Source: a virus (lineage: Duplodnaviria; Caudoviricetes). Taken from it: DNA of 52,491 nt. The translations under genes and the position numbers were made by a program. The DNA lies in the IMG/VR virus record IMGVR_UViG_3300044470_000064, positions 1-52,491 of that record. The stretch is one strand, 5' to 3'. The notes beneath the pieces are model-generated. The model searched no databases and was not told where the DNA came from. It saw only the letters and a list, made by a program, of their open reading frames with translations. Shown here piece by piece: positions 4,643 to 51,107 of this stretch; position 1 is the first letter of the stretch, and every line of letters begins with the position of its first letter.

Positions 4643-5412
4643 GTCGTACCCTCCATATCCACGACTATACCACCTCCTGCGTAGCGCTGGGCAATCGTCT
4701 CCCGGTCCCGCTCCTGTTGGGTCTGCGGGGGCTTGACGTCACCGAGCGCCCCCCAGTGCTTCGCCAGCGCCGAGGGCGTTAGCCTGGCGTTCGGCAGATA
4801 GTCTGCCCACGCGGCGGCCCGACGCCTCACCTCTTCAGGGGTAGCTCCCACGGCCGCCAGGTCGCTCTTGGCCTTATTCGCCGCCCCTCTCCCTGCTGGG
4901 GTCAATTCTCGCCAGTTTACCTGGCACCCCTCGCAGATAGCCTCAAACAGCTCATCCCTTCGGGCCACTTTTGCAGGTACGTTAGTACCTGTTATGTTCT
5001 GTTCCGTCTCCGTTACTTCGGGGGCGTTCGTAGGAGCCGTCCGAACGCCGTTCGAACGCGGTTCGGGTTGGGCCGATCCATACTTGGCGCGGCGCTTCTC
5101 AGCCGAGCGCCGGCCCATCTCGGAGTAGTCCGGGGGCTCGCTCTGGTGGGCCTCCCAGTCGTGCATCTGATAGCCTGCGGGTACGATGTCCCACAGATGC
5201 CGCGCGATGAGCGCCGAGATGGTCTCCTGTTCGAGCGGCCCGGTACAGCCCAGGCCGTGCTCGATGAAACTGATCGGGATAAATCCGCCCGTGTGGTGGA
5301 GTTTGGTATAGAGCAGCCCGGAGATCCAAAGACCCCGGCTGGCAAGGGTCAGCCCGAGCCACTTGTCATGCCCCGCTAGGTCAGTGGCGACTTTGGCGTA
5401 GGTTTCGGTCAC
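4639..5412 (-). CDS. Putative replication initiator (phage replisome organiser-type)
   Basis: N-terminal W..LT..SRGLW..GL.Y winged-helix-like region, basic linker, helical C-terminal domain; position in replication arm. Confidence 0.6.
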   Translation of the reverse strand: MTETYAKVATDLAGHDKWLGLTLASRGLWISGLLYTKLHHTGGFIPISFIEHGLGCTGPLEQETISALIARHLWDIVPAGYQMHDWEAHQSEPPDYSEMGRRSAEKRRAKYGSAQPEPRSNGVRTAPTNAPEVTETEQNITGTNVPAKVARRDELFEAICEGCQVNWRELTPAGRGAANKAKSDLAAVGATPEEVRRRAAAWADYLPNARLTPSALAKHWGALGDVKPPQTQQERDRETIAQRYAGGGIVVDMEGTT

Positions 5413-16720: not shown

Positions 16721-18286
16721 GTGACCTCGAACCCCTGGACCGTGGCGGCCCGCCACTTCGTCCCGCCGACCGTGCGCTCCCGCTGGTACTGCCACCGCCC
16801 AGAGTGTGACGGCAAGCCCCACGATGGCTGGCAGGCCCACGCCCGCACCGCCCAGCGCCCTCCGGTGGGAGACTGGTTCGTTTGGCTCATGCTGGCTGGC
16901 CGAGGGTTCGGCAAGACCCGCGCCGGCGCCGAGTGGTTGGCAGAGCAGGCCCGGACCCACACGAACTCCGCATGGGGGCTGATCGCCCCGACGTGGTCAG
17001 ACGTGCGGAAGTGCGTCCGCGACCCCGAGGCGGGGCTGCTGGACTGCCTGGGCGCTGATCTCGGGGTCCACAACATCACCACTGGCACGGTAACCCTGAA
17101 GAACGGGTCGATCATCCACTGTGTCTCCGCCGACCAACCTGACCGTCTGCGAGGCTACAACCTCTGGGGCGCGTGGGTGGATGAGCTTTCGTCCTGGCGC
17201 AACCCCGAGGCGTGGTCCACGATGGTGCCGGCCTTGCGTGTGGGCTCACACCCGAGGATCGCTGCCACCACGACCCCCAAGGCGGTGGCGCTGATCCGCG
17301 ATCTTGTAGGGCGTCACGATGGCTCCGTGGTGATTGTCCGCGGCTCGACGTGGGATAACGCCGACAACCTCGCCCCGTCGGCTCTGGCTGAACTTCGCAC
17401 CCGGTATGAGGGGACGCGGATCGGCCGGCAGGAGTTGGAGGGCGAGTTGCTAGAGGACGTCCCCGGCGCCCTGTGGACCCTGGAGCTGTTCGAGGATCGT
17501 GAGATCAAGGGCGCGGACGGACAGGTCGAGCGCAGCCTAGCGGGACGCGCTGAGATTACACCTGAGTTGCGGCGGCTGGTGGTAGGTGTGGACCCGACCG
17601 GGGCCGACACGGGCAACCAGGACGAGTGCGGCATCGTGGTGGCCGGCAAGGGTGTCGATGGCCACGGGTACGTCCTCGCCGATCGGACATGCACGGCATC
17701 CCCCGCCGAGTGGGCTCGCAGAGCCGTGGCAGCCTACCGCGAGTTCGGCGCCGACAAGATCGTGGCCGAGGGCAACTTCGGCGCCCAGATGGTAGTCGAT
17801 ACCATCAAGACCGCCGACAAGTCCGTACCCGTCGAGATCGTCACCGCATCCCGATCCAAGCGCCAGCGGGCCGAGCCGGTGGCGGCTCTTTATGAGCAAG
17901 GACGCATACACCACGTCGGCCAACTGGCCAAGCTAGAGGACGAGCTGATCTCATGGACCCCCGAGAGCGGGTGGTCACCGGGACGCATGGACGCCCTGGT
18001 GTGGGCGATCTCGTGGCTCAACCTCGCCGGAGGGCAACTGGACACGCTCTGGCAGCGAGAACTCGACGCATCGCCCACTGTCGTGGCTGGCGGGTGGGCA
18101 GACGTTCCCGGCGAGGGATGCCCGCAGAGTGACGATGGCAGGCACTTCTGGAACGACGGCTTCTGCGTCCACTGCCGGGCGCCCCAGCGGCCAACCGTCG
18201 CCGTGCCCAGCGGACCCGGGTCAGCGTGTAGTCACTATCGGCGGCGCAACGGCGTGTGCATGCTCTGTGGCAAGGAGGCAGCGTGA
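16721..18286 (+). CDS. terL: Terminase large subunit with Cys-rich C-terminal extension
   Basis: AGRGFGKT Walker A, LRG, WVDE Walker B, TTTP, RQELEGE, VGVDP nuclease domain. Confidence 0.95.
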   Translation: MTSNPWTVAARHFVPPTVRSRWYCHRPECDGKPHDGWQAHARTAQRPPVGDWFVWLMLAGRGFGKTRAGAEWLAEQARTHTNSAWGLIAPTWSDVRKCVRDPEAGLLDCLGADLGVHNITTGTVTLKNGSIIHCVSADQPDRLRGYNLWGAWVDELSSWRNPEAWSTMVPALRVGSHPRIAATTTPKAVALIRDLVGRHDGSVVIVRGSTWDNADNLAPSALAELRTRYEGTRIGRQELEGELLEDVPGALWTLELFEDREIKGADGQVERSLAGRAEITPELRRLVVGVDPTGADTGNQDECGIVVAGKGVDGHGYVLADRTCTASPAEWARRAVAAYREFGADKIVAEGNFGAQMVVDTIKTADKSVPVEIVTASRSKRQRAEPVAALYEQGRIHHVGQLAKLEDELISWTPESGWSPGRMDALVWAISWLNLAGGQLDTLWQRELDASPTVVAGGWADVPGEGCPQSDDGRHFWNDGFCVHCRAPQRPTVAVPSGPGSACSHYRRRNGVCMLCGKEAA

Positions 18287-20874
18287 GAATCGGCCCCATG
18301 GAGATCAGCCGCGTCCACAAGGCGGCCGACTATCCGATCCCGTCGCCCGTGAACGGCACGAACGCGCCCCCGAACATCGAGCAGTCCCTACAGAACCAGG
18401 GCATGGGCTGGCAGCTTCCGTTCCCGCCAGGCCATCCGCTCTACCCGTACTTCGGCTATGGCGCGGAGCCGCGGCAGTTCGACTACCAGACCGGTGCCAA
18501 CATCACCGTCCGCCCTCGGTCGGGCAGGATCTCGTTCGACACGCTCCGGGCCTTCACGACCACTTGGGACGTGGCCAGGATGTGCATCGCCCACCGCATC
18601 AACTCGATCCGGTCGTTCGACTGGGCGATCGTCCCCGCCGACGGTTCGGAGGGTGACAGCGACATCGGCCTGGCGCTGGAGACTGGACGGAAGGCCATCG
18701 AGAAGCCTGACGGTAGGCTGCCCTACAAGCGGTGGCTTGCCAAGGCGCTGAACTCACGTCTCCGTTATGACGCCCTGACGCTCTACAAGCGACGGGACAT
18801 GCTCGGACGTGTGATGGCGCTAGAGGTCATCGACGGGACCACCATCGCCCCGATGTTGGACTACTACGGCCGTCTGCCGGTGGGTGACGCCCCGGCCTAC
18901 CTCCAGTTCGCCAACGGCGTGCCGTGGGACTGGCTGGCTGACCGGGACGTCATCTATGCGCCCTACTTCCCGCAGGAGGATTCGCCTTACGGCTGGGCGC
19001 CGGTCGAGGACGTGATCGCCGTCGCCAACATCGACGAGCGGATGACGCTCCATCTGTTGGAATACTGGAACACGTCGAACCTACCCGCCGGCTGGCTGGA
19101 GGCTCCGCCCTCGTGGGACGACCCCGCCAAGCTGGACGACTTCCAGGCGCGGCTGAACGCCAAGCTCATGGGCGACCAGCAGAAGAAGGTGCAGGCTCAC
19201 GTCGTGCCACAGGGGACGAAGTTTACCCCGATCCGTTCGGAGTCGTTCGACACGGACGCCTACCTCTGGGGTTTCAGGAAGGGATGCGCTGCCTTCGGGG
19301 TGGTGCCGCAGGACCTCGGGGTCACGCTAGACATCAACAAGGCCACGGGGGAGACGCAGATAGACGTCCAGTCCCGGATCGCTGATCGTCCGATGTGTGA
19401 GGATCTCGACGGGCTCATCACCAGTTACCTCCAGGACGACCTGGGGCTGCCGGTGAAGATGCAGACCTCCTACTCGGCCGAGAAAGAGGATCGCGTCGCT
19501 GACGCCAATGTGTGGAAGATCGGCACCGAGGGCGGGGCTGTCACCGTGGACGAGTGGCGCTCCGAGATGTTCGGGCTGGAGGTCGATTCCGACCGGCCCG
19601 TGCCACGGTTCATCATGTCCTCTCGGGCGGGGCCGATCCCGCTGGCCAACCTGTTCGCCATCTCCGGCCCGATCAACCCCGCCACAGGTGGGCCGCTGGA
19701 CACGACACCGCTGGTGGACACCGGTAAGAAGCCCTTCGAGGCTGCCGCCGGCGTGGCTCCCGGAAAGACGCTCAACACTCCCGGCGCGCTCGTCTCGACG
19801 TTCAACCCTGATGAGCCACAGTTCCCGCAGGACGAGCTGTCTGCCACGCCTGCCCCCACCACGATCGCCGCAGTGGCCAAGAGCGAGACTGAGGGCATCA
19901 CGTCCGAGACTGGCCTAGTGGGTTACGACGAGTTCAGAGCCTCGCATCCTGAGCTAGACGACGACGAGGACGACGAGGACGACCGGGTGGCAATCCAGAA
20001 GGAACTCGGCCGCTGGCGTGACTTCGCCCGCAACCGCGTCAAGACTGGCAAGCCGCTCCGGGCCTTCGCCTCCACGGTGATCCCCGCTGATGTGTCAGAG
20101 CACATCACCAAGGCACTCGCTGGCTGCACCACGCGGGCTCAGGTTGACGCCGCCTTCGCGGAGGCCGCCAAGAGCGCCGATTTTTTTCTAGGTGACGTAG
20201 CGCCCGTTCACAAGGCGCATCCCCTTGTTCCATCCGCCACCGTGGGGAGTATTCCTGCCCTTGGCGTACATGTCCGCGATGTTGTCCTTTTGGGTCCCCA
20301 GGAAGAGATGGTCCGGGTTCACGCAGCCCCGGTTGTCGCAGTGGTGCAGAACCAACAGACCAGCGGGAATCGGCCCGTGGAAGAACTCCCAGGAAACCCG
20401 GTGGGCAAGGCGAACCCCATGAGGGTCGCCGCGGCGCCAGCGTCCCCGATGCACCCCGACGAGCGTGTGGAAGTACCCGTAGCCCCCTTTGAGGGCGCTG
20501 CTCGTTTGGGCACCAAGCCAGTTCCAACACCCGTCACCAAAAGAAACCCTGCCCCAGAATCGCAAGAACTCTTCCATAAGACCCATTATACCACCTCGCG
20601 GGCTAACCCTACTGCGGCAGTAGCCTACCCGGTCAGGAAGGCCAAGCACCCCACCGATGCCCTGCTCGACCAGATCGTGGGGCACTACGCCCCGCTGGTT
20701 GGCCAGGCGCTTGCCAGTGCGTTGCCATCACAGTCCCGGCTCGCCCAGGGGAACCTGACGCCCGCCGACCTCGACCTCTCGCAGCTACAGGCGGTGCTCA
20801 CCGAGGCCACCACGGATGCGTGGGTCGGCGGGGCGCTGATCGCGGCCGATGCCGTGACCAACCGCAGGGGCTAA
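18283..20874 (+). CDS. Portal protein with long C-terminal extension (contains an in-frame antisense HNH insertion)
   Basis: Follows TerL, AAGGAGG SD; [26 protein letters not shown] portal motifs. Confidence 0.9.
20188..20577 (-). CDS. HNH homing endonuclease nested antisense in the portal ORF
   Basis: [52 protein letters not shown]; TGGTATAAT extended -10 7 nt before ATG. Confidence 0.9.
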
Positions 20875-20875
20875 A

Positions 20876-21154
20876 GCCCCGCCCCGCCACGCCCAACCGC
20901 GCCTCACCCGGCCTTGCCTGCCACGCCATGCCAGACCCAGCCATGCCACGCCCGACCCAGCCCAGACTTGCCGGCCTAGCCTGACCGCGCCTAGCCTAGC
21001 CACACCTGCCCCGCCATGCCCTGCCTCGCCCGACCCCGCCATGCCGCGCCTCGCCTGCCACGCCGAGCCGCGCCCGGCCGAGCCGCGCCTTGACCCGCCT
21101 TGCCTGCACCGCCATGCCCCGCCCCGCCACGCCCAACCGCGCCTCACCCGGCCT
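20876..21154. repeat. 39-bp perfect direct repeat inside the array (20876-20914 and 21116-21154)
   Basis: gccccgccccgccacgcccaaccgcgcctcacccggcct occurs twice, 240 bp apart. Confidence 0.95.
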
Positions 21155-21172
21155 CGCCTAGCCGCGCCTGCC
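20876..21172 (-). ncRNA. GGY-NN pentamer array (54 pentamers, 6 units), putative guide-RNA array of the adjacent Cas7/RAMP-like gene
   Basis: Minus strand parses as (GGY NN)n with variable NN, punctuated by 4-nt GGCA/TGCA/GGCC units; the repeat is certain, RNA function is inferred. Confidence 0.75.
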
Positions 21173-21184
21173 AATAACGCGATT

Positions 21185-21682
21185 TTAGTTGGTCTCCCTC
21201 TCTACAGCATCGAGCGCTTGCCAGACGGGCGCCAACTCCTTGAGTGACTGATAGCGACGACGGAAGCCCTTGAGCGCCGCCAACGCCTCGCGGAGCACGT
21301 AACTCCGCTGACCTGGCTCTGCCAGGGCCACGGTGAGCAGAGAGTACCCCTCGCTCTGGCCGTCGTCAGGGGCCGCCATCACGACATGCACGAACGCCGG
21401 GGCATCCTCGCGGGTGCCTTCCGCATCAACGCATCGAACGGAGTTGATGATCTGACGGGCCTGCTGGACGCGCCACGCCTCAGCACCCACCCGATCATCC
21501 CACTCCAACGTCGGGTGCAGGGGGCTGTCCTCCGGCCGAGCGACGTCCACATAGGTCGCGGGGGCACAGACCCCCTCTCGGGCGGCGATCTCTGCCACCG
21601 TCTCTCCCACGACCTGAGCGGAGACGGTGCAGCCCGGACCATGTCCCGACCAAACGTAACGGGTCGCTGTAGCAAGGGTCAT
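21185..21682 (-). CDS. Accessory protein of the RAMP cassette (165 aa), function unknown
   Basis: ATG overlaps the RAMP stop (TGATG); ARPEDSPLHPTLEWDD..GAEAWRVQQARQII conserved-looking motif. Confidence 0.8.
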   Translation of the reverse strand: MTLATATRYVWSGHGPGCTVSAQVVGETVAEIAAREGVCAPATYVDVARPEDSPLHPTLEWDDRVGAEAWRVQQARQIINSVRCVDAEGTREDAPAFVHVVMAAPDDGQSEGYSLLTVALAEPGQRSYVLREALAALKGFRRRYQSLKELAPVWQALDAVERETN

Positions 21683-22275
21683 CACACCACCTCGAACAGA
21701 CCGAACTGTCCGTCCTTCTCGGGGCGCCACTCGCCGATCCCCACCGCGAAGCCTGCCAGGTTGAGCAGGTTCACGATCTGATCGACGGAGATCGAACGGG
21801 CGTTGAAGATGATCGGCAGTTTAGCCGACCACTCGGGAAACTCGGCGCGGTAGCGGATATCAGCCGTTCCCATGCCGACCCTGACCATGTCCTCCCGACT
21901 GTGGGGTGTCCCCTCGATCTTGACCATGTCACCGAGGATGTGGAAGGCGCCGCGCAGGAACGTCATCTTCATGTCGCAGTAGGTTCCCGCCCGCACGGCG
22001 GCACCCTTGAACGCGACGGACGGGAAACCGTAGCCCCCACCGGGGTACGGGTAGAGCGAAGCCTGATAGTCGGCTTCGGGGTCCTTGGCCTCCTTGGCCT
22101 GCTTGGCCGCCTTGGTCTGCTTGTCTAGCATCTGCCGCTTGGCCTTCTCCGACCAGCGGTGACAGATCAGCGGAGACAGCCCCCGCACGGTCAGCTCGAT
22201 CCGCTGAGTGTCTAGTTCGACCCGCTGCACCACGGCGGTTTCCTCTGGTGCCTTCGTCGTTGTCGTGCCGGTCAT
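21682..22275 (-). CDS. Stand-alone Cas7/RAMP-like protein (Vipr-like)
   Basis: IELTVRGLSPLICH first strand, FPSVAFKGAAVRA helix, C-terminal Gly-rich loop AGFAVGIGEWRPEKDGQFGLFEV; GAGGAG SD. Confidence 0.75.
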   Translation of the reverse strand: MTGTTTTKAPEETAVVQRVELDTQRIELTVRGLSPLICHRWSEKAKRQMLDKQTKAAKQAKEAKDPEADYQASLYPYPGGGYGFPSVAFKGAAVRAGTYCDMKMTFLRGAFHILGDMVKIEGTPHSREDMVRVGMGTADIRYRAEFPEWSAKLPIIFNARSISVDQIVNLLNLAGFAVGIGEWRPEKDGQFGLFEVV

Positions 22276-22332
22276 AGCCGCTCCTCTCGGCCGTCGGGCC
22301 GTTACAAGACCCCGGCGGCCGAATACTTCCCT

Positions 22333-22362
22333 ACTATACGCGTCCCGCTACGGGAAAGTCAA
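22333..22362 (-). promoter_or_regulatory. Sigma70-type promoter of the RAMP cassette, TTGACT-N18-TATAGT
   Basis: Near-consensus hexamers; followed by a 5'UTR hairpin and SD. Confidence 0.75.
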
Positions 22363-22738
22363 GGAGGGCAGATGCCAGGCCCCACCACTCTGACGGCCCC
22401 CGCCCAGTCGGCGCAGTCACACGGGCAGCACTTAGACATCTCTGATTTCCCTCCGGTGGATGCGGGCAATTCGTTCCACCCTCTTGCAGAAGGGCGAGGT
22501 CAAGTCCTCGGAACCGCAGACCCCCTGGGGAAGCCCGGCGTCGAGGCGGTCGAACAGATCGTCCCAGTCAATGGGATATTCGGAGTACCAACCCTCCACG
22601 ATGGATTCGATGTCCTCCCGGAGCGCATCGGCCTCCGCAGCCGTCTCTAGGAACCACCAATCGCCCATAGCGCCAGTCTAGCACAACAGGAGGGCAGATG
22701 CCAGGCCCCACCACTCTGACGGCCCCCGCCCAGTCGGC
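22362..22738. repeat. 51-bp perfect direct repeat (22362-22412 and 22688-22738) containing the MuF SD and first codons
   Basis: aggagggcagatgccaggccccaccactctgacggcccccgcccagtcggc twice, 326 bp apart. Confidence 0.95.
22432..22668 (-). CDS. Antisense moron gene, hypothetical acidic protein
   Basis: TGCTAGACT-N6-ATG leaderless promoter; lies between the 51-bp repeats. Confidence 0.7.
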   Translation of the reverse strand: MGDWWFLETAAEADALREDIESIVEGWYSEYPIDWDDLFDRLDAGLPQGVCGSEDLTSPFCKRVERIARIHRREIRDV

Positions 22739-23261
22739 ACTGCCCGCCTCGATGCAGGACACGGCATGGGGAGACTGGACGCCCGGTTGGGCTGGCGCGG
22801 CGGCCACGATCAGCGACCCTGGCCTGGACGCGGTGCTCTCGGGCCTCGGGTTCACCCTGAAGGGCCTCGCCTCGTCCACCATCGACCAGATCGGCTCCCA
22901 GATCGCTCAGGGGGTCGCCTCTGGCGCCTCGATGGATTCTATCGCCATGGGTCTCCGGGATTCGTTGGGCGGGGACGCCTCGCGGGCCTACACCATCGCT
23001 GACACCGAGTGCGCCCGTGCCGCTCAGGATGCGAGCATGCAGACCTACCAGGCCAACGGCATCGAGATGCTCGACTGGCTCGTGGCAGATGATCCCTGTG
23101 ACGACTGCCAGGCGAACGCCGACGGTGGTCCGTATGCGACGGCCGACTTCCCGGACTTGCCAGCTCATCCGAGATGCCGGTGTGCATCGTCCCCGAACAT
23201 CGAATCGCTGACTGGCGGGACCTCCGACGACACCACCAATGACACAGACCAGGGAGAGTAA
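22698..23261 (+). CDS. MuF / SPP1 gp7-like minor head protein
   Basis: [16 protein letters not shown]...[15 protein letters not shown]. Confidence 0.85.
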
Positions 23262-23263
23262 CT

Positions 23264-24739
23264 ATGGTCCGACGCGTTCTCGCTGTCCTTACCGCGCTGG
23301 CGGTCGCAGCCCTTGGGTTGTTCGCGCTGGGCTCGTCCAACCGCGTCTCGGCCGCCCCCCTGCCTGGCCTCAGCGTATCTGGTAACCACCTGGTGAACGC
23401 CTCCGGGCAGACCGTCGTGCTGCACGGGGTCGACCGGTCGGGCACCGAGTACATGTGCGTCCAGGGCGGCGGCATCTTCGACGGCCCGTCCGATGCCACC
23501 TCGGTGGCCGCGATGGCCTCGTGGGGGATCAACGCCGTCCGCATCCCTCTCAATGAGGACTGCTGGCTGGGCATCAACGGAGCCAACCCGGGCGGCGCCA
23601 TCTATCAGTCGGCGATCGAAGCATACGTCACGCTCCTGCACTCGGCCGGGATATACGCGATCCTGGACCTCCAGTGGACCGCCCCCGGTTCGGTCGAGGC
23701 GACGTACCAAGAGAACATGGCCGACTACAGCAACTCGGTGCCCTTCTGGGCGTCTGTTGGCGCCGCTTTCAAGAACGACCCGGCGACCCTCTTTGACCTC
23801 TTCACCGAGCCGAACAACATCGGCATCGTGGGTTGTGTGGCGGGCGCTCCTGCCGGTTGTGCTACCGCCGTCGCCGAATCCGCCGCCGGCAACGGTGAGG
23901 GCGCCTTCTGGTGGTGCGCCTACGTAGGGACAGGCTGCATCGCCAACCAGAACTCGGCCAAGTTCGGGAACTGGCAGATCGCCTCCATGCAGGACATGCT
24001 TACCGCCGTCCGCGGTGCCGGAGCATCCAACGTCGTCATGGTCGGGGCCGACCAGTTCGCCAACGACCCGAGCGCATGGCTGGCGAATGTGCCGGTCGAT
24101 CCTGACCATCAGCTCGCCATGAGTTTCCACGTGTACAACTTCAACTACCCCTGTGTGAGCCTCGCCTGCTGGAACTCCGAGCTCCTGCCCATCGCCGCCT
24201 CGTACCCGATCATCTCGGGTGAGATCGGCGAGAGTGACGGCAGTGCGAGCTTCATCGACGGCTACATGGCTTGGGCGGATGCCAACGGGGTCTCGTACCT
24301 CGCGTGGACCTGGGACACCTGGGGTTGCGGAGATTCGGCCGTGCTGATCTCTTCCTACACCGGAACCGCCTGTGCCGGGTATGGCGCTGGATACCAGGCG
24401 CACCTGGCCACGCTGGCTGGCAGCACCCCAACACCGACGAGCACACCGACGGCGACGCCGACCAGTGGACCAACGTCCACACCTACCCCTAGTCTGCCGA
24501 CACCCACCCCCACGTCCACACCTACGGCAGTGCCGACCCCGACACCCACGGCGGTGCCGACGGCCACCCCCACGCCACGTCCGACGAGCACGCCGCGACC
24601 AACTGCTACCCCGCGGCCGAGCGCGACGCCTACACCTACTCCGACGCCGGAGCCGAGCTTCACCGAGACGATCACCGTCAACGGACACACCTGCACGATC
24701 ACCGTGACTAACGGCGTGGTTAGCGGGACTTGCACATGA
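23264..24739 (+). CDS. Secreted glycoside hydrolase family 5 (cellulase-like) with Pro/Thr linker
   Basis: Signal peptide, [28 protein letters not shown] acid/base, FHVY, GEIG nucleophile, YLAWTW. Confidence 0.85.
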
Positions 24740-24927
24740 CGGACGCTGAAGTCATGGCCTCTCTGCGGGGCCATATCGAGAGGTACGGTGAGGATGGGGC
24801 GAGCCTGACCTATGAGGACGGCCAACCCGTGATCCATATCGAGGACCGCAAGAAGATCGTCCACTGGTTCGCCGGGACGGGCTCAACGCACTGCGGATTC
24901 CCAACCCCAGACGGTAGCTGTACATGA
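24736..24927 (+). CDS. Hypothetical protein
   Basis: ATGA overlaps. Confidence 0.55.
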
Positions 24928-25178
24928 CGATCGCTGCCCGCCGTCTCGTTACCGTTGCCATCCCCGACATGGATGGCTGCGAGCGCACCCTGCGCTATGC
25001 CGCCGAGCGGATGTGCCAGGGGACGGACGTCATCGTCGTGGATCGGCACCCGCTGATCCCTGACGCGGTGATGCCGGAACTCTTCGCCAAGCTCACCGAG
25101 GTGGTCCGGGATGCCGCCGGGCAGGCCCGCCATCACATCGACAAGCACCTTTCAGCCACCTACTCACGAGGATACTGA
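24924..25178 (+). CDS. Hypothetical protein
   Basis: ATGA overlap. Confidence 0.55.
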   Translation: MTIAARRLVTVAIPDMDGCERTLRYAAERMCQGTDVIVVDRHPLIPDAVMPELFAKLTEVVRDAAGQARHHIDKHLSATYSRGY

Positions 25179-25179
25179 C

Positions 25180-25401
25180 ATGGGAGACGCTCTAGCTGTC
25201 GCTCGGGCGGCAGTCGATCAAGCTCACGCCGCCATGGTCGAGGCCAAGAAACTGTGTGTGAATTGCGGCGGGCCAGACGACGTACCCGCTGCGGGCGAGC
25301 GCTTTGGTGCCGTCCATGCCCCTCACGCCGCCGAGGTTGAGGCAGCCCATGCTGCACTCCAGCAGGCCACTGCGGCCCAATTCCTGGTGGAAGGGAGCTG
25401 A
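25180..25401 (+). CDS. Hypothetical protein
   Basis: GAGG SD, tight packing. Confidence 0.6.
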   Translation: MGDALAVARAAVDQAHAAMVEAKKLCVNCGGPDDVPAAGERFGAVHAPHAAEVEAAHAALQQATAAQFLVEGS

Positions 25402-25402
25402 C

Positions 25403-25873
25403 ATGGGAATGTCTCAGGCACTTCAGTTGAACATCCTCGACGCCATCTTCGGCGGTGGGGCCTCCCAGTCGGCATGGACCGGCGTCGCCACCGTGTACTG
25501 TGGTGTCTCGACCTCGACGTACTCCGTCACCCTGCTCGACGCCACCATCATCGCGGCCGAGCCATCCTCGACGGGAAGCTATGCTCGGATCGTCATCACC
25601 AACAACTCGACCAACTTCCCGGCCTCGACCACCAGCACCGCGACAGGCACCAAGAAGCTGCACGTCGCCTTCTCCTTCACCACCTCGACGGCGGCCTGGA
25701 GCACCGGCGCGACTGCGCTGGCGTCCTTCTTCTTCTCCAGTGTGACCACACTCGCCACCGGCCCAGTGATGTACATGGGCGCTCTCTCCCCGGCCACCGA
25801 CATCGTCAATGGAACGGGTGTCACCTTCACCTTCGCCATTGACGCGCTCCAGATGACCCTCGCTCCCGCGTAA
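25403..25873 (+). CDS. Virion structural protein (small fibre/decoration-type)
   Basis: LNILD.IFG, EPS..GSYAR, F......W, FTF....L.MT pattern seen in phage structural genes. Confidence 0.65.
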   Translation: MGMSQALQLNILDAIFGGGASQSAWTGVATVYCGVSTSTYSVTLLDATIIAAEPSSTGSYARIVITNNSTNFPASTTSTATGTKKLHVAFSFTTSTAAWSTGATALASFFFSSVTTLATGPVMYMGALSPATDIVNGTGVTFTFAIDALQMTLAPA

Positions 25874-25885
25874 GGAGCCTGAGCG

Positions 25886-27676
25886 ATGGCGATTGCCCTC
25901 GCCCAACAGGTAGGTGGTGGCGCCACCGTTACTGGGCAGACTACCTGCACGCCTGTGATCTCGTCGTCGGCGGGCAACCTGCTTGTCCTTATCGTCACCT
26001 GGTCCAGTTCGGGCCTGGGTACCAACGACAGCATCGCCGTCAACACAAACGGCGGTACCTGGGTCGGCGGCACCAATGTCGCCAACACGTCCCCGAACGG
26101 TTGCTCGTTCTCTGCCTATCTGCCCAATAACGCGGGCGGATCGCTGTCGTGGACGGCAACCTTCACCCCCGGCTATGGCAACACTACTCTCGGATGGACG
26201 TGGAACATCCTGGAGTTCTCCGGGATCGCCACCTCCTCGCCGCTCGACCTGGCGATGGTGTACAAGACCAACACCGCCCAGACGGCGTGGACGACCACGG
26301 CCGCCTCGGGGACGACGGTCTCCACCGATCTGCTGGTGGCCATCTATGGTGGGCACATCAGCTCGACCCTGACCTTCACGGCCAACGCCTCGGGGTCGTT
26401 GCCGTCGTCGGGGTGGGCGAACACCACACAGGTCGTCGCCGCGCTGGGCGGCGCCGCCAACTGTCACAACATCGGCTCGTACGTCGTCCCTGGCGCCACT
26501 GAGACCTCGCCGGTCTGCGTCATCACATGCTCGGCTTCTGTCACCTATGAGGGATTCCTCTGGACCTTCAAGGTCGGCGGCACCACTGACACCCCGACCG
26601 GCACTGGTGCAGAGACCGCCGCATCGACAGCCAGCCTGACGAGCGGCCAGGCCCTCACCTCTACCGCAGGCTCTACAGGCGCAGCCACCGCGAACGTCAC
26701 GACATCCCAGGCCCTCACCTCGACTGCGGCCGAGACGGGCGCATCCACGGCGAATGTCACCGCAGCGCAGACGCTATCCTCGACAGCGGCGGGCACGAGC
26801 GCCTCGACTGCTAACCTGACGAGCGGGCAGGCGCACACATCCACGGCGGCGAGCACTGGGGCTTCGACAGCCAACCTCACCGTCTCCCAGGCCCTCACCT
26901 CGACTGCGGCCGATGTTGGGGCTTCCACCGCCAACCTCACTGTCGCGGTAACGGCGACGGGCTCCGCCGCCGAGACAGGGGCCTCATCCTCCACTCTGAC
27001 GGAGGTTGCGGCTCATACTGGCGTCGCAGCGGAGATAGCAGCAGCGAGCGGCGCGCCGAGCGTGGCCAGCGGGGTTAGCCCGACTGGTACGGCCTCGGGC
27101 ACCAGTGGCGCTACAGCCAACCTTACGGTCTCTCAGGCGCTGACGAGCACGGGCGCAGAGATGGGCGCCTCGACCGCGAACCTGACCGAGACGGCGCTCC
27201 ACACCTCGACTGCGGCTGAATCGAGCGCTGCGAGCGGCGTCCCCAGCATCAACGCTGCGCCTGTTACCCCAACGGGAACGGGTGCGGGCACCAGTTCCGC
27301 GACCGCGAACCTATCGGTCACCGTCCTGCTGGTAAGCCTTGCCGCTGGGGTGGGCGACTTGGCGGCGAGCCTCACGCAAGCGGCGACCCTCGCTGGCATC
27401 GCACTCGGGACTAGCGGGGCAAGCGGCCTACTCTCCACGTTGCAGCAACTCGCGGGAACGGGTGCGAGCGTCAGCGGTGCATCGGGTACCCCGGCGCTCC
27501 TCATGCTGGCCGCCGCAGTCTACACGGCCACCGTCCGCAGCGGACAGGGATTCACCAGGGCCAGGACCGGCGCAACGGTCGCAACGTCCAGGACTGGCCA
27601 GGGCAATACCAGGGCGAGGACGGGAACGGTGACAGATACAGTCCGCACCGGCGATCTCACCGTCCACGCTCGATAG
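25886..27676 (+). CDS. Thr/Ala/Ser-rich virion fibre-like protein with ~20-aa repeats
   Basis: Beta-rich N-terminal domain then repeats of ASTANLTxSQALTSTAAETG. Confidence 0.7.
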   Translation: MAIALAQQVGGGATVTGQTTCTPVISSSAGNLLVLIVTWSSSGLGTNDSIAVNTNGGTWVGGTNVANTSPNGCSFSAYLPNNAGGSLSWTATFTPGYGNTTLGWTWNILEFSGIATSSPLDLAMVYKTNTAQTAWTTTAASGTTVSTDLLVAIYGGHISSTLTFTANASGSLPSSGWANTTQVVAALGGAANCHNIGSYVVPGATETSPVCVITCSASVTYEGFLWTFKVGGTTDTPTGTGAETAASTASLTSGQALTSTAGSTGAATANVTTSQALTSTAAETGASTANVTAAQTLSSTAAGTSASTANLTSGQAHTSTAASTGASTANLTVSQALTSTAADVGASTANLTVAVTATGSAAETGASSSTLTEVAAHTGVAAEIAAASGAPSVASGVSPTGTASGTSGATANLTVSQALTSTGAEMGASTANLTETALHTSTAAESSAASGVPSINAAPVTPTGTGAGTSSATANLSVTVLLVSLAAGVGDLAASLTQAATLAGIALGTSGASGLLSTLQQLAGTGASVSGASGTPALLMLAAAVYTATVRSGQGFTRARTGATVATSRTGQGNTRARTGTVTDTVRTGDLTVHAR

Positions 27677-27685
27677 GGAGACAGT

Positions 27686-28000
27686 ATGGCAGGCATCACG
27701 CCCTGGGCGACCGGGCAACTTCTCCCGACGTGGGTGATCTCGCTGGTGGACGACAACGGCAACCCCGTCAACCTGACGGGTGCTACGTCTGCCGCGCTGA
27801 GTTTCCTACAGGGGAACAGTGCCTCTGTCGGCGCCGGTGTGGCCGCGGTCGCATCCCCGCCCACGCTGGGACAGGTGACCTACGCGCCAGCAACGGCCGA
27901 TGTCGTCTCGCCGGGAACCTACAAGGTATTCGTGAACGTGACGTTCCCATCGGGGGTCCTCACGAGCGATCCGCTGCCATGGATTCTCGTCCAGTCATGA
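27686..28000 (+). CDS. BppU-N-like Ig-fold virion protein
   Basis: L.D..G.PVNLTGAT, GQVTY....AD....GTY...V.VTF..G. Confidence 0.65.
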   Translation: MAGITPWATGQLLPTWVISLVDDNGNPVNLTGATSAALSFLQGNSASVGAGVAAVASPPTLGQVTYAPATADVVSPGTYKVFVNVTFPSGVLTSDPLPWILVQS

Positions 28001-49859: not shown

Positions 49860-51107
49860 GTGAACTGGATCGCTCAACTCCTCCGACTGATCGCGTCCTG
49901 GTTCACCAGGCCGACGCCGAAGCCTGCGCCAACGCCCGTTCCGACGCCAACCCCCACGCCGACGCCCACACCTGTGCCGGTGCCGGTCCCCACGCCGGTG
50001 CCGACGCCTGTGCCGACCCCCACCCCAGTGCCGACACCCGTGCCGGTCCCAACCCCCACTCCGGTGCCAACGCCCGTGCCCGTCCCTGCGCCAACGCCGA
50101 CCCCCACGCCGACCCCGGTGCCAACGCCGGTCCCCGGCGTTCCCGGCATCGACGCCGAGATGATCGACACCCTCCCGGCGGACGTTCTCGCTGAGGCGCA
50201 GGTGATCTTCTTCTACGGCTCCCCGTTCGGTTCCACGCAGGGACCGGCCCGGGTCACCCCTGCCGCCTTCGTGGCCCAGCAGGCCGCTGCTGGGAAGGCC
50301 ATCTGGGGCGGGTATTTTCCCGGATCTGACCCGGCATCTGCTCTGGCCGAGGCGGAAGCAGCGCCGCGGGACACCGGCGTGTGGGTGGACCTAGAGCCGG
50401 AGGTCGAGGCCGACGAGCAGAGCCTCGCGTGGTGCGCCGCCTTCGGTGACTTCATGCTCGCCAACGGGATGCCCTGTGGGATCTACTCGCACGAGGGCAC
50501 CTGCGCCGACCTCGCTGGCCACTTTAGCGCCCAGTGGTGGGACGGCCAGCCTCAGCCGACCAGCCTTCCCTCGGCGACCGCGATCCAGTACGGTCAACAG
50601 ACCGCGAGCAACGGGGTGCCCTTCGACCGCGACGCCTGCGACGCCTACTTCCTCGATCCCCCAGCCCCGGTCGCGACGATCCAGCAGGACCTCGTCGCCT
50701 ACGTCTCGACGCACCTCGGGACCGAGGTCGACGTTCCAGGGTGGCCCGGCCCGAATGACCCCGAGTGCACCGACTGGGCGCTCTCGTGGTTCCTGCACCG
50801 AGGTGGCAATGGTGGACTGGTTCACGGTAACGCCGTCGCGTGGGCCGGCCAGGACTGGACCGCCTCCGGTTGGGTATGGGTGGCCAACACCCCGACCAAC
50901 ATGCCGAGCATCGGCGACATCGTCACCTGGGGCCCGACCCCGAGCCTGGGGATCGGCGCCGCCGGCCACACCGGCATCGTGTACGACAACGTCACGGTGA
51001 TGAGCCTTGAGACGGCCGACCAGAACTGGGGCGCGAACCGCGACGTGGAGCTGGAGACGCACAGCTACGTCGGCGTTCTCGGCTGGCACACGCCGAGTAA
51101 GCCATGA
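49860..51107 (+). CDS. Endolysin: amphipathic N-terminus, Pro/Thr/Val repeat, degenerate GH25-like domain, CHAP domain
   Basis: WVDLE, GIYS, IQY...FDRD; ECTDWA, GNA..W, GDIV.W, GHTGIV, DQNW. Confidence 0.8.
49911..50136 (+). repeat. Coding (PT/PV)n low-complexity repeat
   Basis: About 75 codons of alternating Pro. Confidence 0.85.

Follow-up and report, generated by a model that had tools for sequence, protein, structure and literature searches.

Candidate VIPR cassette within the portal-MuF head gene of a peat phage and the predicted target of its terminal guide in a sibling phage

The DNA analyzed here, referred to as the window, is the entire 52,491-base stretch of IMG/VR virus record IMGVR_UViG_3300044470_000064, in which a terminase, a portal protein, a MuF protein and other phage genes are present. 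Within its head module, the large terminase gene (16721–18286) is followed by a long plus-strand open reading frame (ORF; 18256–20874) that codes for a portal protein (PF04860) at its start (18256–20177) and ends with the N-terminal part of a MuF-like domain, designated MuF-N (20596–20874, plus strand). MuF-N is homologous to the continuous portal-MuF fusion of a related IMG/VR contig, L020, and of a related protein, P0122, and is truncated by a cargo slot; the C-terminal part of the domain, MuF-C (Phage_Mu_F, PF04233; 22698–23261, plus strand), restarts at its own ATG beyond that slot. The slot contains an array of short repeats and two minus-strand genes. The explanation that accounts best for them, which we consider probable with the guide-target relationship described below included in that judgment, is that they form a Viral Interference Programmable Repeat (VIPR) cassette lodged in the slot that splits the portal-MuF gene.

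VIPR systems consist of a ~20-kDa RAMP protein (Vipr), an accessory gene (vap) and guide RNAs, termed vrRNAs, made of alternating GGY and NN motifs (bioRxiv 10.64898/2026.04.26.720920). According to the available text of the same preprint, the NN dinucleotides pair with double-stranded DNA by a ‘1-nt skip rule’, with the skipped base usually at the wobble position of a codon and with either strand as a target; natural targets are called at NN identities of at least 80%, and ‘staggered arrays’ with one-base overlaps are known. Two companion preprints, as far as their available text goes, describe a Vipr filament that sequesters the GGY motifs and a binding reaction that yields an R-loop triplex (bioRxiv 10.64898/2026.04.26.720927, 10.64898/2026.10.15.759431), and the later of them, from October 2026, reports that in SUSP1-family phages self-matches score lower than non-self matches (bioRxiv 10.64898/2026.10.15.759431).

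The array occupies positions 20876–21170, with its RNA sense on the minus strand, and comprises ~58 GGY-NN pentamers at a 5-nt period. One-base phase slips, at which GGCA is followed directly by GGC, divide it into six vrRNAs of 12, 9, 9, 6, 10 and 8 NN, designated a to f in RNA order: a (21106–21170), b (21057–21104), c (21008–21055), d (20974–21006), e (20920–20972) and f (20876–20918), all on the minus strand. The short vrRNA d ends in GGCC rather than GGCA. The last unit, f, carries the series AA CG GA GC TG GT GG GG and adjoins the stop codon of MuF-N. The two end units of the array (20876–20919 and 21116–21159) are 98% alike over 44 nt, and seven NN, CG GA GC TG GT GG GG, are common to both. 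In contigs from a peat run, X3, the array occurs in variants with other GCCNN units, with joints of 21092 to 21057 and of 21026 to 21019, and with three base changes at 21022–21027, so that the guide repertoire varies within the population.

One minus-strand frame is open over the whole array, forming part of a 129-codon ORF (20785–21174), and GenBank records place hypothetical proteins over equivalent stretches beside vipr homologs, namely gene 48 of phage Donkeykong (L002, 2471–2857) and gene 40 of phage UmaThurman (L003, 3631–3954). Were the array a protein-coding gene, any match between its units and other DNA would lack meaning as a guide. This reading is hardly credible and was rejected: a 5-nt period interrupted by 4-nt slips cannot keep a reading frame meaningful, the ORF has no Pfam or PHROG match, the sequence is conserved at GGY and variable at NN whatever the frame, the same stretch is left unannotated in phage ODay, and published VIPR arrays are described as non-coding guide RNAs (bioRxiv 10.64898/2026.04.26.720920). 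Donkeykong gene 48 and UmaThurman gene 40 are probably guide arrays and not genes.

The gene at 21682–22275 (minus strand; phrog_4652) is predicted to code for a 197-residue single-domain RAMP protein of the Csm3/Cas7 type with a C-terminal glycine-rich loop, GIGEWRPEKDGQFG, in which G179, G181, W183, R184, P185, G189 and G192 are invariant among 36 sequences. Its AlphaFold model (pLDDT 82, pTM 0.75) matches 46 PDB chains in Foldseek at E-values of at most 0.001 (best 2e-5, template modeling [TM] score ~0.5), with the top ranks taken by Csm3 and further backbone subunits of the Cas7 family from CRISPR effector complexes of types III and VII. A match to a sigma-70-like promoter, TTGACT-18-TATAGT, lies upstream of this vipr gene (22333–22362, minus strand) and is a match to the consensus only. 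The second gene (21185–21682, minus strand; phrog_15946, a family of unknown function) is a putative vap-like accessory gene that codes for 165 residues from an ATG overlapping the vipr stop codon, or for 181 residues if read to 21730. Its product is modeled at a pLDDT of 92.5 and has no Pfam family; a Foldseek search of the PDB returned no significant match (best E-value 0.65, the weak matches being winged-helix-like), and only unnamed viral clusters were returned from the ESM Atlas. In 49 other loci a homolog of this gene likewise separates vipr from the array.

The arrangement of vipr and array recurs elsewhere. The protein collection searched contains ~8000 Vipr relatives, and tblastn against isolated phages returned 34 matches, mostly in Mycobacterium and Gordonia phages; in all three GenBank actinophage loci inspected among these, an NNGGY array with the same GGCAGGC punctuation adjoins the vipr homolog. 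Across 83 vipr loci (80 from IMG/VR and 3 from GenBank), an array is present in 62, always on the vipr strand, and many of the 21 loci that lack one are cut by contig ends. Within the window, a tandem-repeat scan detected no CRISPR-like repeat-spacer array, with no dedicated search for cas genes made, and Rfam returned nothing better than an E-value of 0.6 within 20000–23400. The Pfam scan covered nine window ORFs, and the PADLOC scan covered five proteins, four from the window and one from the slot of a sibling phage described below.

A partial match to the guides lies directly beside the array. On the plus strand, 20815–20832 is GAT GCG TGG GTC GGC GGG, which codes for D A W V G G in the frame of the ORF at 18256–20874, and six consecutive NN common to vrRNAs a and f, GA GC TG GT GG GG, fit it exactly when every third base is skipped, whereas the flanking NN do not. 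The sequence-only reading had pointed to this site and to a register in which two bases of every three are read with the skip at the wobble position. That register is the published VIPR skip rule, and the site is indeed single: GAnGCnTGnGTnGGnGG occurs once in the window, at 20815–20831 on the plus strand. The same reading listed six NN as shared by its units U1 and U6 (vrRNAs a and f); all six match the site, although the two units share a seventh, CG. Taken over the eight NN of vrRNA f, the self copy of the site (20809–20831, plus strand; MuF-N codons T T D A W V G G) agrees at 13 of 16 informative bases, including an exact 12/12 core at 20815–20831, and the core ends 44 bp before the start of the array at 20876.

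Comparisons with shuffled guides indicate that the position of this match is more unusual than its length. The pattern GANGCNTGNGTNGGNGG has a single match on the two strands of the window even when one mismatch is allowed; at that tolerance 0.77 matches are expected, and one or more occurred in 51 of 100 shuffles. When the order of NN was permuted 20000 times, within guides or pooled, 22% of shuffles produced a run of at least six NN from any of the six guides at some position in the window, but the proportion that placed one within 100 bp of the array was just 0.06% (12/20000) to 0.09% (18/20000). These values agree with the earlier rough estimate that such a match would be unremarkable in 52 kb and of the order of 1 in 1000 near the array. 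The proximity criterion was set after the match had been seen, and in 62 other VIPR loci there are four matches of at least six NN (shuffle mean 1.2), only one of which lies within 150 bp of its array. These last points, together with the 22% of shuffles that yield a run somewhere in the window, are what favors a coincidence between the GC-rich, G-first codons for Asp, Ala, Trp, Val, Gly and Gly and the G-rich dinucleotides of the guides. Such a coincidence is nevertheless highly improbable, in view both of the rarity of shuffled runs near the array and of the homologous site in a sibling phage, where guide f matches at its other two NN as well.

This site emerged when IMG/VR was scanned for exact matches to the pattern of guide f. 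Nine stretches were returned; one of them, positions 4772–4794 of contig L015, is the homologous MuF-N site, and the other eight lie in unrelated sequence. The L015 site reads AAG CGT GAT GCC TGG GTT GGC GG (K R D A W V G G) and agrees with guide f at 16 of 16 bases, with the skipped bases in frame at third codon positions. L015 is a close relative of the window phage, with nucleotide identities of 95.0% in the portal region, 96–97% in three blocks of the capsid region and 91.6% in MuF-N. Among 3000 distinct permutations of guide f scored on L015 and L020, none reached 16/16 and three reached 15. The fuller match that the sequence-only reading had proposed to look for in the portal/MuF segment of related phages is therefore found for its unit U6, in the form that the pattern [KN]-R-[DE]-A-[WC]-V-G-G predicts.

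Three alleles of the site can be compared. Guide f scores 16/16 on L015, 13/16 on its own genome and 12/16 on L020, which carries the uninterrupted portal-MuF fusion and reads ATDAWVGG. The difference between the self copy and L015 is concentrated in two codons at the 5’ end of the guide, ACC ACG in place of AAG CGT (TT in place of KR), in which five of the six bases differ. A protein search with the MuF-N part returned two proteins: P0121, which breaks off at the position where the window does and contains ...TEAKRDAWVGG..., the amino acid series predicted by guide f, and P0122, an uninterrupted fusion that reads ...TTAATDAWVGG.... The MuF-N segment is carried by just two IMG/VR contigs, L015 and L020; a metagenome scan with the MuF-N piece returned one 2.4-kb contig, L008, that ends inside the segment; and among 50,697 phage records neither a megablast search with 18200–23400 nor a tblastn search with the MuF-N piece gave a match, while tblastn with MuF-C gave distant matches only, at identities of at most 35%. 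A portal query in IMG/VR returned four loci (L004–L007), none of which is a good match to any guide.

The best-supported reading of these sequences is that guide f is aimed at the KRDAWVGG codons of MuF-N as carried by siblings such as L015 and P0121. A perfect score in a sibling combined with 13/16 at home suggests that the partial self-match reflects a genuine pairing of guide and target across the allelic head genes of competing phages, and we favor this over either chance or a working self-target. The proximity of the self-match to the array would then be a consequence of where the cassette is inserted, namely in the gene of which it targets another allele. The change from KR to TT in the self copy fits avoidance of self-targeting, consistent with what the sequence-only reading had proposed for the imperfect match. 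Its proposal that the targets are cassette-free phages is not supported: the uninterrupted allele L020 scores below the self copy, P0122 likewise reads ATDAWVGG, and the matched L015 carries another cargo. Its prediction that U1 would read A-Y-[DE]-R-[DE]-A-[WC]-V-G-G-[IM]-G in a relative also found no counterpart, as guide a has no exact match in IMG/VR. A 10-NN core of guide a has three matches among 185,579 species genomes, in unrelated bacterial contexts and at 20–21 of 24 bases, which are taken as chance. Guides b and e likewise have no exact match in IMG/VR, guide c has one exact match there, probably by chance, in a contig that is unrelated and has 46% GC, and guide d has too few specified bases for a collection scan.

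Several observations weigh against this reading of guide f. Only one DNA-level target emerges among the five guides long enough to scan, and array-proximal partial self-matches are not general among VIPR loci. Guide f is short, with 8 NN compared with 9–16 in the type II vrRNAs characterized so far in preprint form, which also sets it apart from VIPR as published. The sibling with the perfect site is known from metagenome contigs only, and that it shares a host with the window phage is something we infer. Of three small contigs from metatranscriptome run X24, none lies on the array, and contigs cannot show small RNAs in any case. The words ‘mismatch’ and ‘seed’ each occur zero times in the available text of the structural preprint, which yielded no data on mismatch tolerance. 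Finally, the self score of guide f, 0.81, falls just above the 0.8 at which the preprints call targets.

Taken at face value, this last value would favor a role at home, in which a weakly bound complex of guide f or a at 20809–20831 acts as a roadblock to the late head-operon transcription that runs antisense into the array, and so protects vrRNA production or times the expression of MuF-C and the capsid genes. The site does belong to the converging transcription unit, 44 bp upstream of the array, and its matching core is common to two guides. However, a block at this point would also deprive the phage itself of MuF-C and the head genes that follow, the tight grouping of the base changes from KR to TT suggests that the self copy has diverged from the guide, and guide a matches the window at just 13 of 24 bases (16/24 on L015 and 14/24 on L020). 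The preprints, in their available text, moreover report no self-matches at or above 0.8 in their systems and self scores lower than non-self scores. Autoregulation by these guides is accordingly quite unlikely.

Comparison of the window, L015 and L020 also shows how the slot is built. The window and L015 share the split portal-MuF gene, in which a stop follows ...AADAV(TNRRG/KR) and the cargo is followed by a conserved ribosome-binding site and the ATG that restarts MuF-C. The cargo of L015 is a 176-codon minus-strand gene of unknown function (L015 4818–5348) that has no Pfam, PHROG or PADLOC match. A search of the ESM Atlas with its product gave weak matches resembling LAGLIDADG-containing proteins (TM score by query 0.41–0.44), which is a lead only. 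The cargo of the window consists of the VIPR cassette and a second module, a 78-residue minus-strand ORF (22432–22668), again without Pfam, PHROG or PADLOC match, that lies between direct repeats of 51 nt. The first copy of the repeat (22362–22412, plus strand) contains the ribosome-binding site and first codons of MuF-C, and the second, a perfect copy (22688–22738, plus strand), supplies its working ribosome-binding site and ATG. The 78-residue ORF thus looks like a second cargo module that can be added to or removed from the slot by recombination. One soil run contains a contig joining 20855 to 22678, as in L015.

A further insert is present upstream of the slot. An HNH_3 homing-endonuclease-like gene (20188–20685, minus strand, with a likely ATG near 20590) lies antisense between the portal and MuF parts, and the plus frame of the portal-MuF ORF runs uninterrupted across it. 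It is the sole match of the PADLOC scan, as a homing endonuclease, and is missing from both siblings. In run X3, the joint that lacks it (20177 to 20595, with 9 other letters between) has a depth of ~80, compared with ~14 for the form with the HNH gene, and the VIPR cassette is covered at ~70–80. The HNH_3 gene is a separate insert that is polymorphic in the population and independent of VIPR.

The location of the guide-f target, ~25–45 bp from the cargo junction in both the window and L015, raises a homing-like drive, in line with the homing-like competition envisaged by the sequence-only reading. Binding or nuclease recruitment at the rival allele would lead to recombinational repair from the VIPR genome and copy the cassette into the rival. 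The contents of the slot do vary among siblings, with VIPR and the 78-residue gene in the window, the 176-codon gene in L015 and nothing in L020; an HNH endonuclease gene stands 200 bp away, and some VIPR types carry nucleases (bioRxiv 10.64898/2026.04.26.720920). Several findings argue in the other direction. First, the empty-slot allele of L020 scores 12/16, below the self copy, although a homing endonuclease would be expected to recognize the empty allele. Second, the vap product shows no nuclease-like fold in the Foldseek results described above. Third, the HNH gene varies apart from VIPR: both siblings lack it, and in run X3, with the cassette present at full depth, only a minority carries it. 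Fourth, the characterized VIPRs silence DNA and do not cut it (bioRxiv 10.64898/2026.04.26.720920). The homing reading is weakened because the empty allele is not recognized and no nuclease is evident in the cassette, and we consider it improbable. In a related and still doubtful proposal, VIPR may be one of several selfish cargos vying for the portal-MuF slot, with a terminal guide specific to the KR allele that is linked to a rival cargo, at a site a few tens of bases from the junction. The guide would silence the late head operon of the rival in mixed infections, and stalled or processed complexes next to the slot would also favor a recombination in which VIPR takes the place of the rival cargo, amounting to an RNA-guided homing-like drive; guides a and f would be two versions that track different alleles of the conserved RDAWVGG motif.

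If guide f instead acts by silencing its sibling allele, as we prefer, a course of events can be proposed by analogy with the published systems. The promoter-like site at 22362–22333 would drive vipr, vap and the staggered array of six vrRNAs. Vipr protomers would coat each vrRNA, hiding GGY and presenting NN, and the NN would pair with double-stranded DNA while skipping every third base, with the bound complex blocking transcription. Guide f would in this way lead a Vipr filament to the KR allele of the sibling portal-MuF gene and silence the late head operon of the rival during mixed infection, and the carrier’s own allele, diverged at the 5’ end of the guide, would presumably be spared at its 13/16 site. 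Each of these steps, from vrRNA expression and processing through binding and silencing to the sparing of self, is drawn from that analogy.

A parallel to guide f is present in another locus. Read as codons, the first guide of L040 (L040 5072–5163) gives EDMVRVGM, an invariant motif of Vipr, and it reaches 16/16 on the vipr genes of 47 other loci but 13/16 on its own vipr. On the vipr gene of the window (21872–21894) it scores 15/16, the Arg codon there being AGG and not CGN. By its sequence, the L040 guide appears to be directed against VIPR, with self-avoidance built in. When 234 guides with 8 or more NN were compared for cross-targeting, 103 matches were obtained at up to two mismatches. 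If 76 matches of one anti-vipr guide are set aside, together with 10 matches of window guides to loci that had been selected by the patterns of those guides, 17 are left, compared with 13–23 in five shuffles, and there is no enrichment. A 9-NN guide of L048 matches the MuF end of a portal-Nudix-MuF gene in L005 (8710, minus strand) at 16/18, within the range of shuffled controls for the entire set of guides; as a lead only, MuF genes may be recurrent VIPR targets.

Other parts of the window have features of their own. A region of ~4.7 kb (23238–27997) has no counterpart in L015 and L020. Among its contents is a GH5 cellulase gene (23264–24739) whose product has a linker rich in Pro and Thr; such an auxiliary gene is unusual in a peat phage. 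A 60-nt tandem repeat of 5.5 copies (26612–26940) lies within a 596-codon ORF, and repeats with periods of 6, 12 and 36 nt (49916–50129) lie within a late ORF at 49860–51107.

As judged from sequence and the structure model, the features examined in the window, namely a small RAMP protein, a same-strand pentamer array, no visible CRISPR array and a target that obeys the skip rule, correspond to the description of VIPR. Shared with the published systems are a single-domain RAMP of ~20 kDa, an adjacent gene that is putatively accessory, a GGY/NN array on the same strand, carriage by a phage with neither CRISPR repeats nor cas genes seen within the scope of the scans given above, a 1-nt skip at the wobble position, a predicted target in a competing phage, a self-match lower than the non-self match and staggered one-base slips. 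In contrast to VIPR as published, the window comes from a high-GC peat or soil phage with vipr relatives in Mycobacterium and Gordonia phages, and its array has no conserved 3’ tail or pseudoknot between guides. Its predicted target also differs, being an allelic variant of the structural gene that hosts the cassette, ~45 bp from the insertion point, and not a satellite, a regulator or another VIPR. These differences are relative to the available text of the preprints; in the main text of the April preprint, there is no occurrence of Gordonia or of words beginning with Mycobacteri or Actino (bioRxiv 10.64898/2026.04.26.720920).

The resemblance extends to the backbone of Class 1 CRISPR-Cas effectors, in which Cas7/Csm3 subunits assemble on CRISPR RNA, through the fold of Vipr, the use of one protomer per short RNA repeat and the periodic unpaired positions. 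Unlike those systems, the window cassette has no CRISPR repeats and no Cas1/Cas2 or large and small subunits, with the limit on the cas-gene search noted above; its guide information resides in dinucleotides at a 5-nt period with no contiguous spacer, and its guides are encoded in the genome with no acquisition machinery seen. Another comparison is with free-standing homing endonuclease genes, and with mobile inserts of other kinds, in the structural genes of phages: the slot splits a conserved head gene, its occupants alternate in siblings, the recognition site lies near the insertion point in the rival allele, and the polymorphic HNH_3 gene is present 200 bp away as a separate insert. In contrast to such inserts, recognition here would be RNA-guided and, by analogy, repressing and not cleaving, and the empty allele of L020 is not recognized.

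The first description of the VIPR system dates from 2026, and its register and the principle of a lower self score are likewise contained in preprints that appeared between April and October of that year. Its natural targets have been mapped mainly in enterobacterial and Pseudomonas systems, as far as the available preprint text indicates. What the window would add is a natural guide-target pair in a different, high-GC phage lineage, a clade left unnamed in the main text of the first April preprint. The series of three alleles at 16/16, 13/16 and 12/16 could be used to measure tolerance of NN mismatches, for which the texts searched contain no published measurement. For annotation, where records of Mycobacterium and Gordonia phages show ‘hypothetical proteins’ across stretches of this kind, the stretches are probably arrays of guides. 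The window further suggests that VIPR cassettes can sit in structural genes, in a slot shared with other cargos, which would tie RNA-guided silencing to the competition between mobile inserts.

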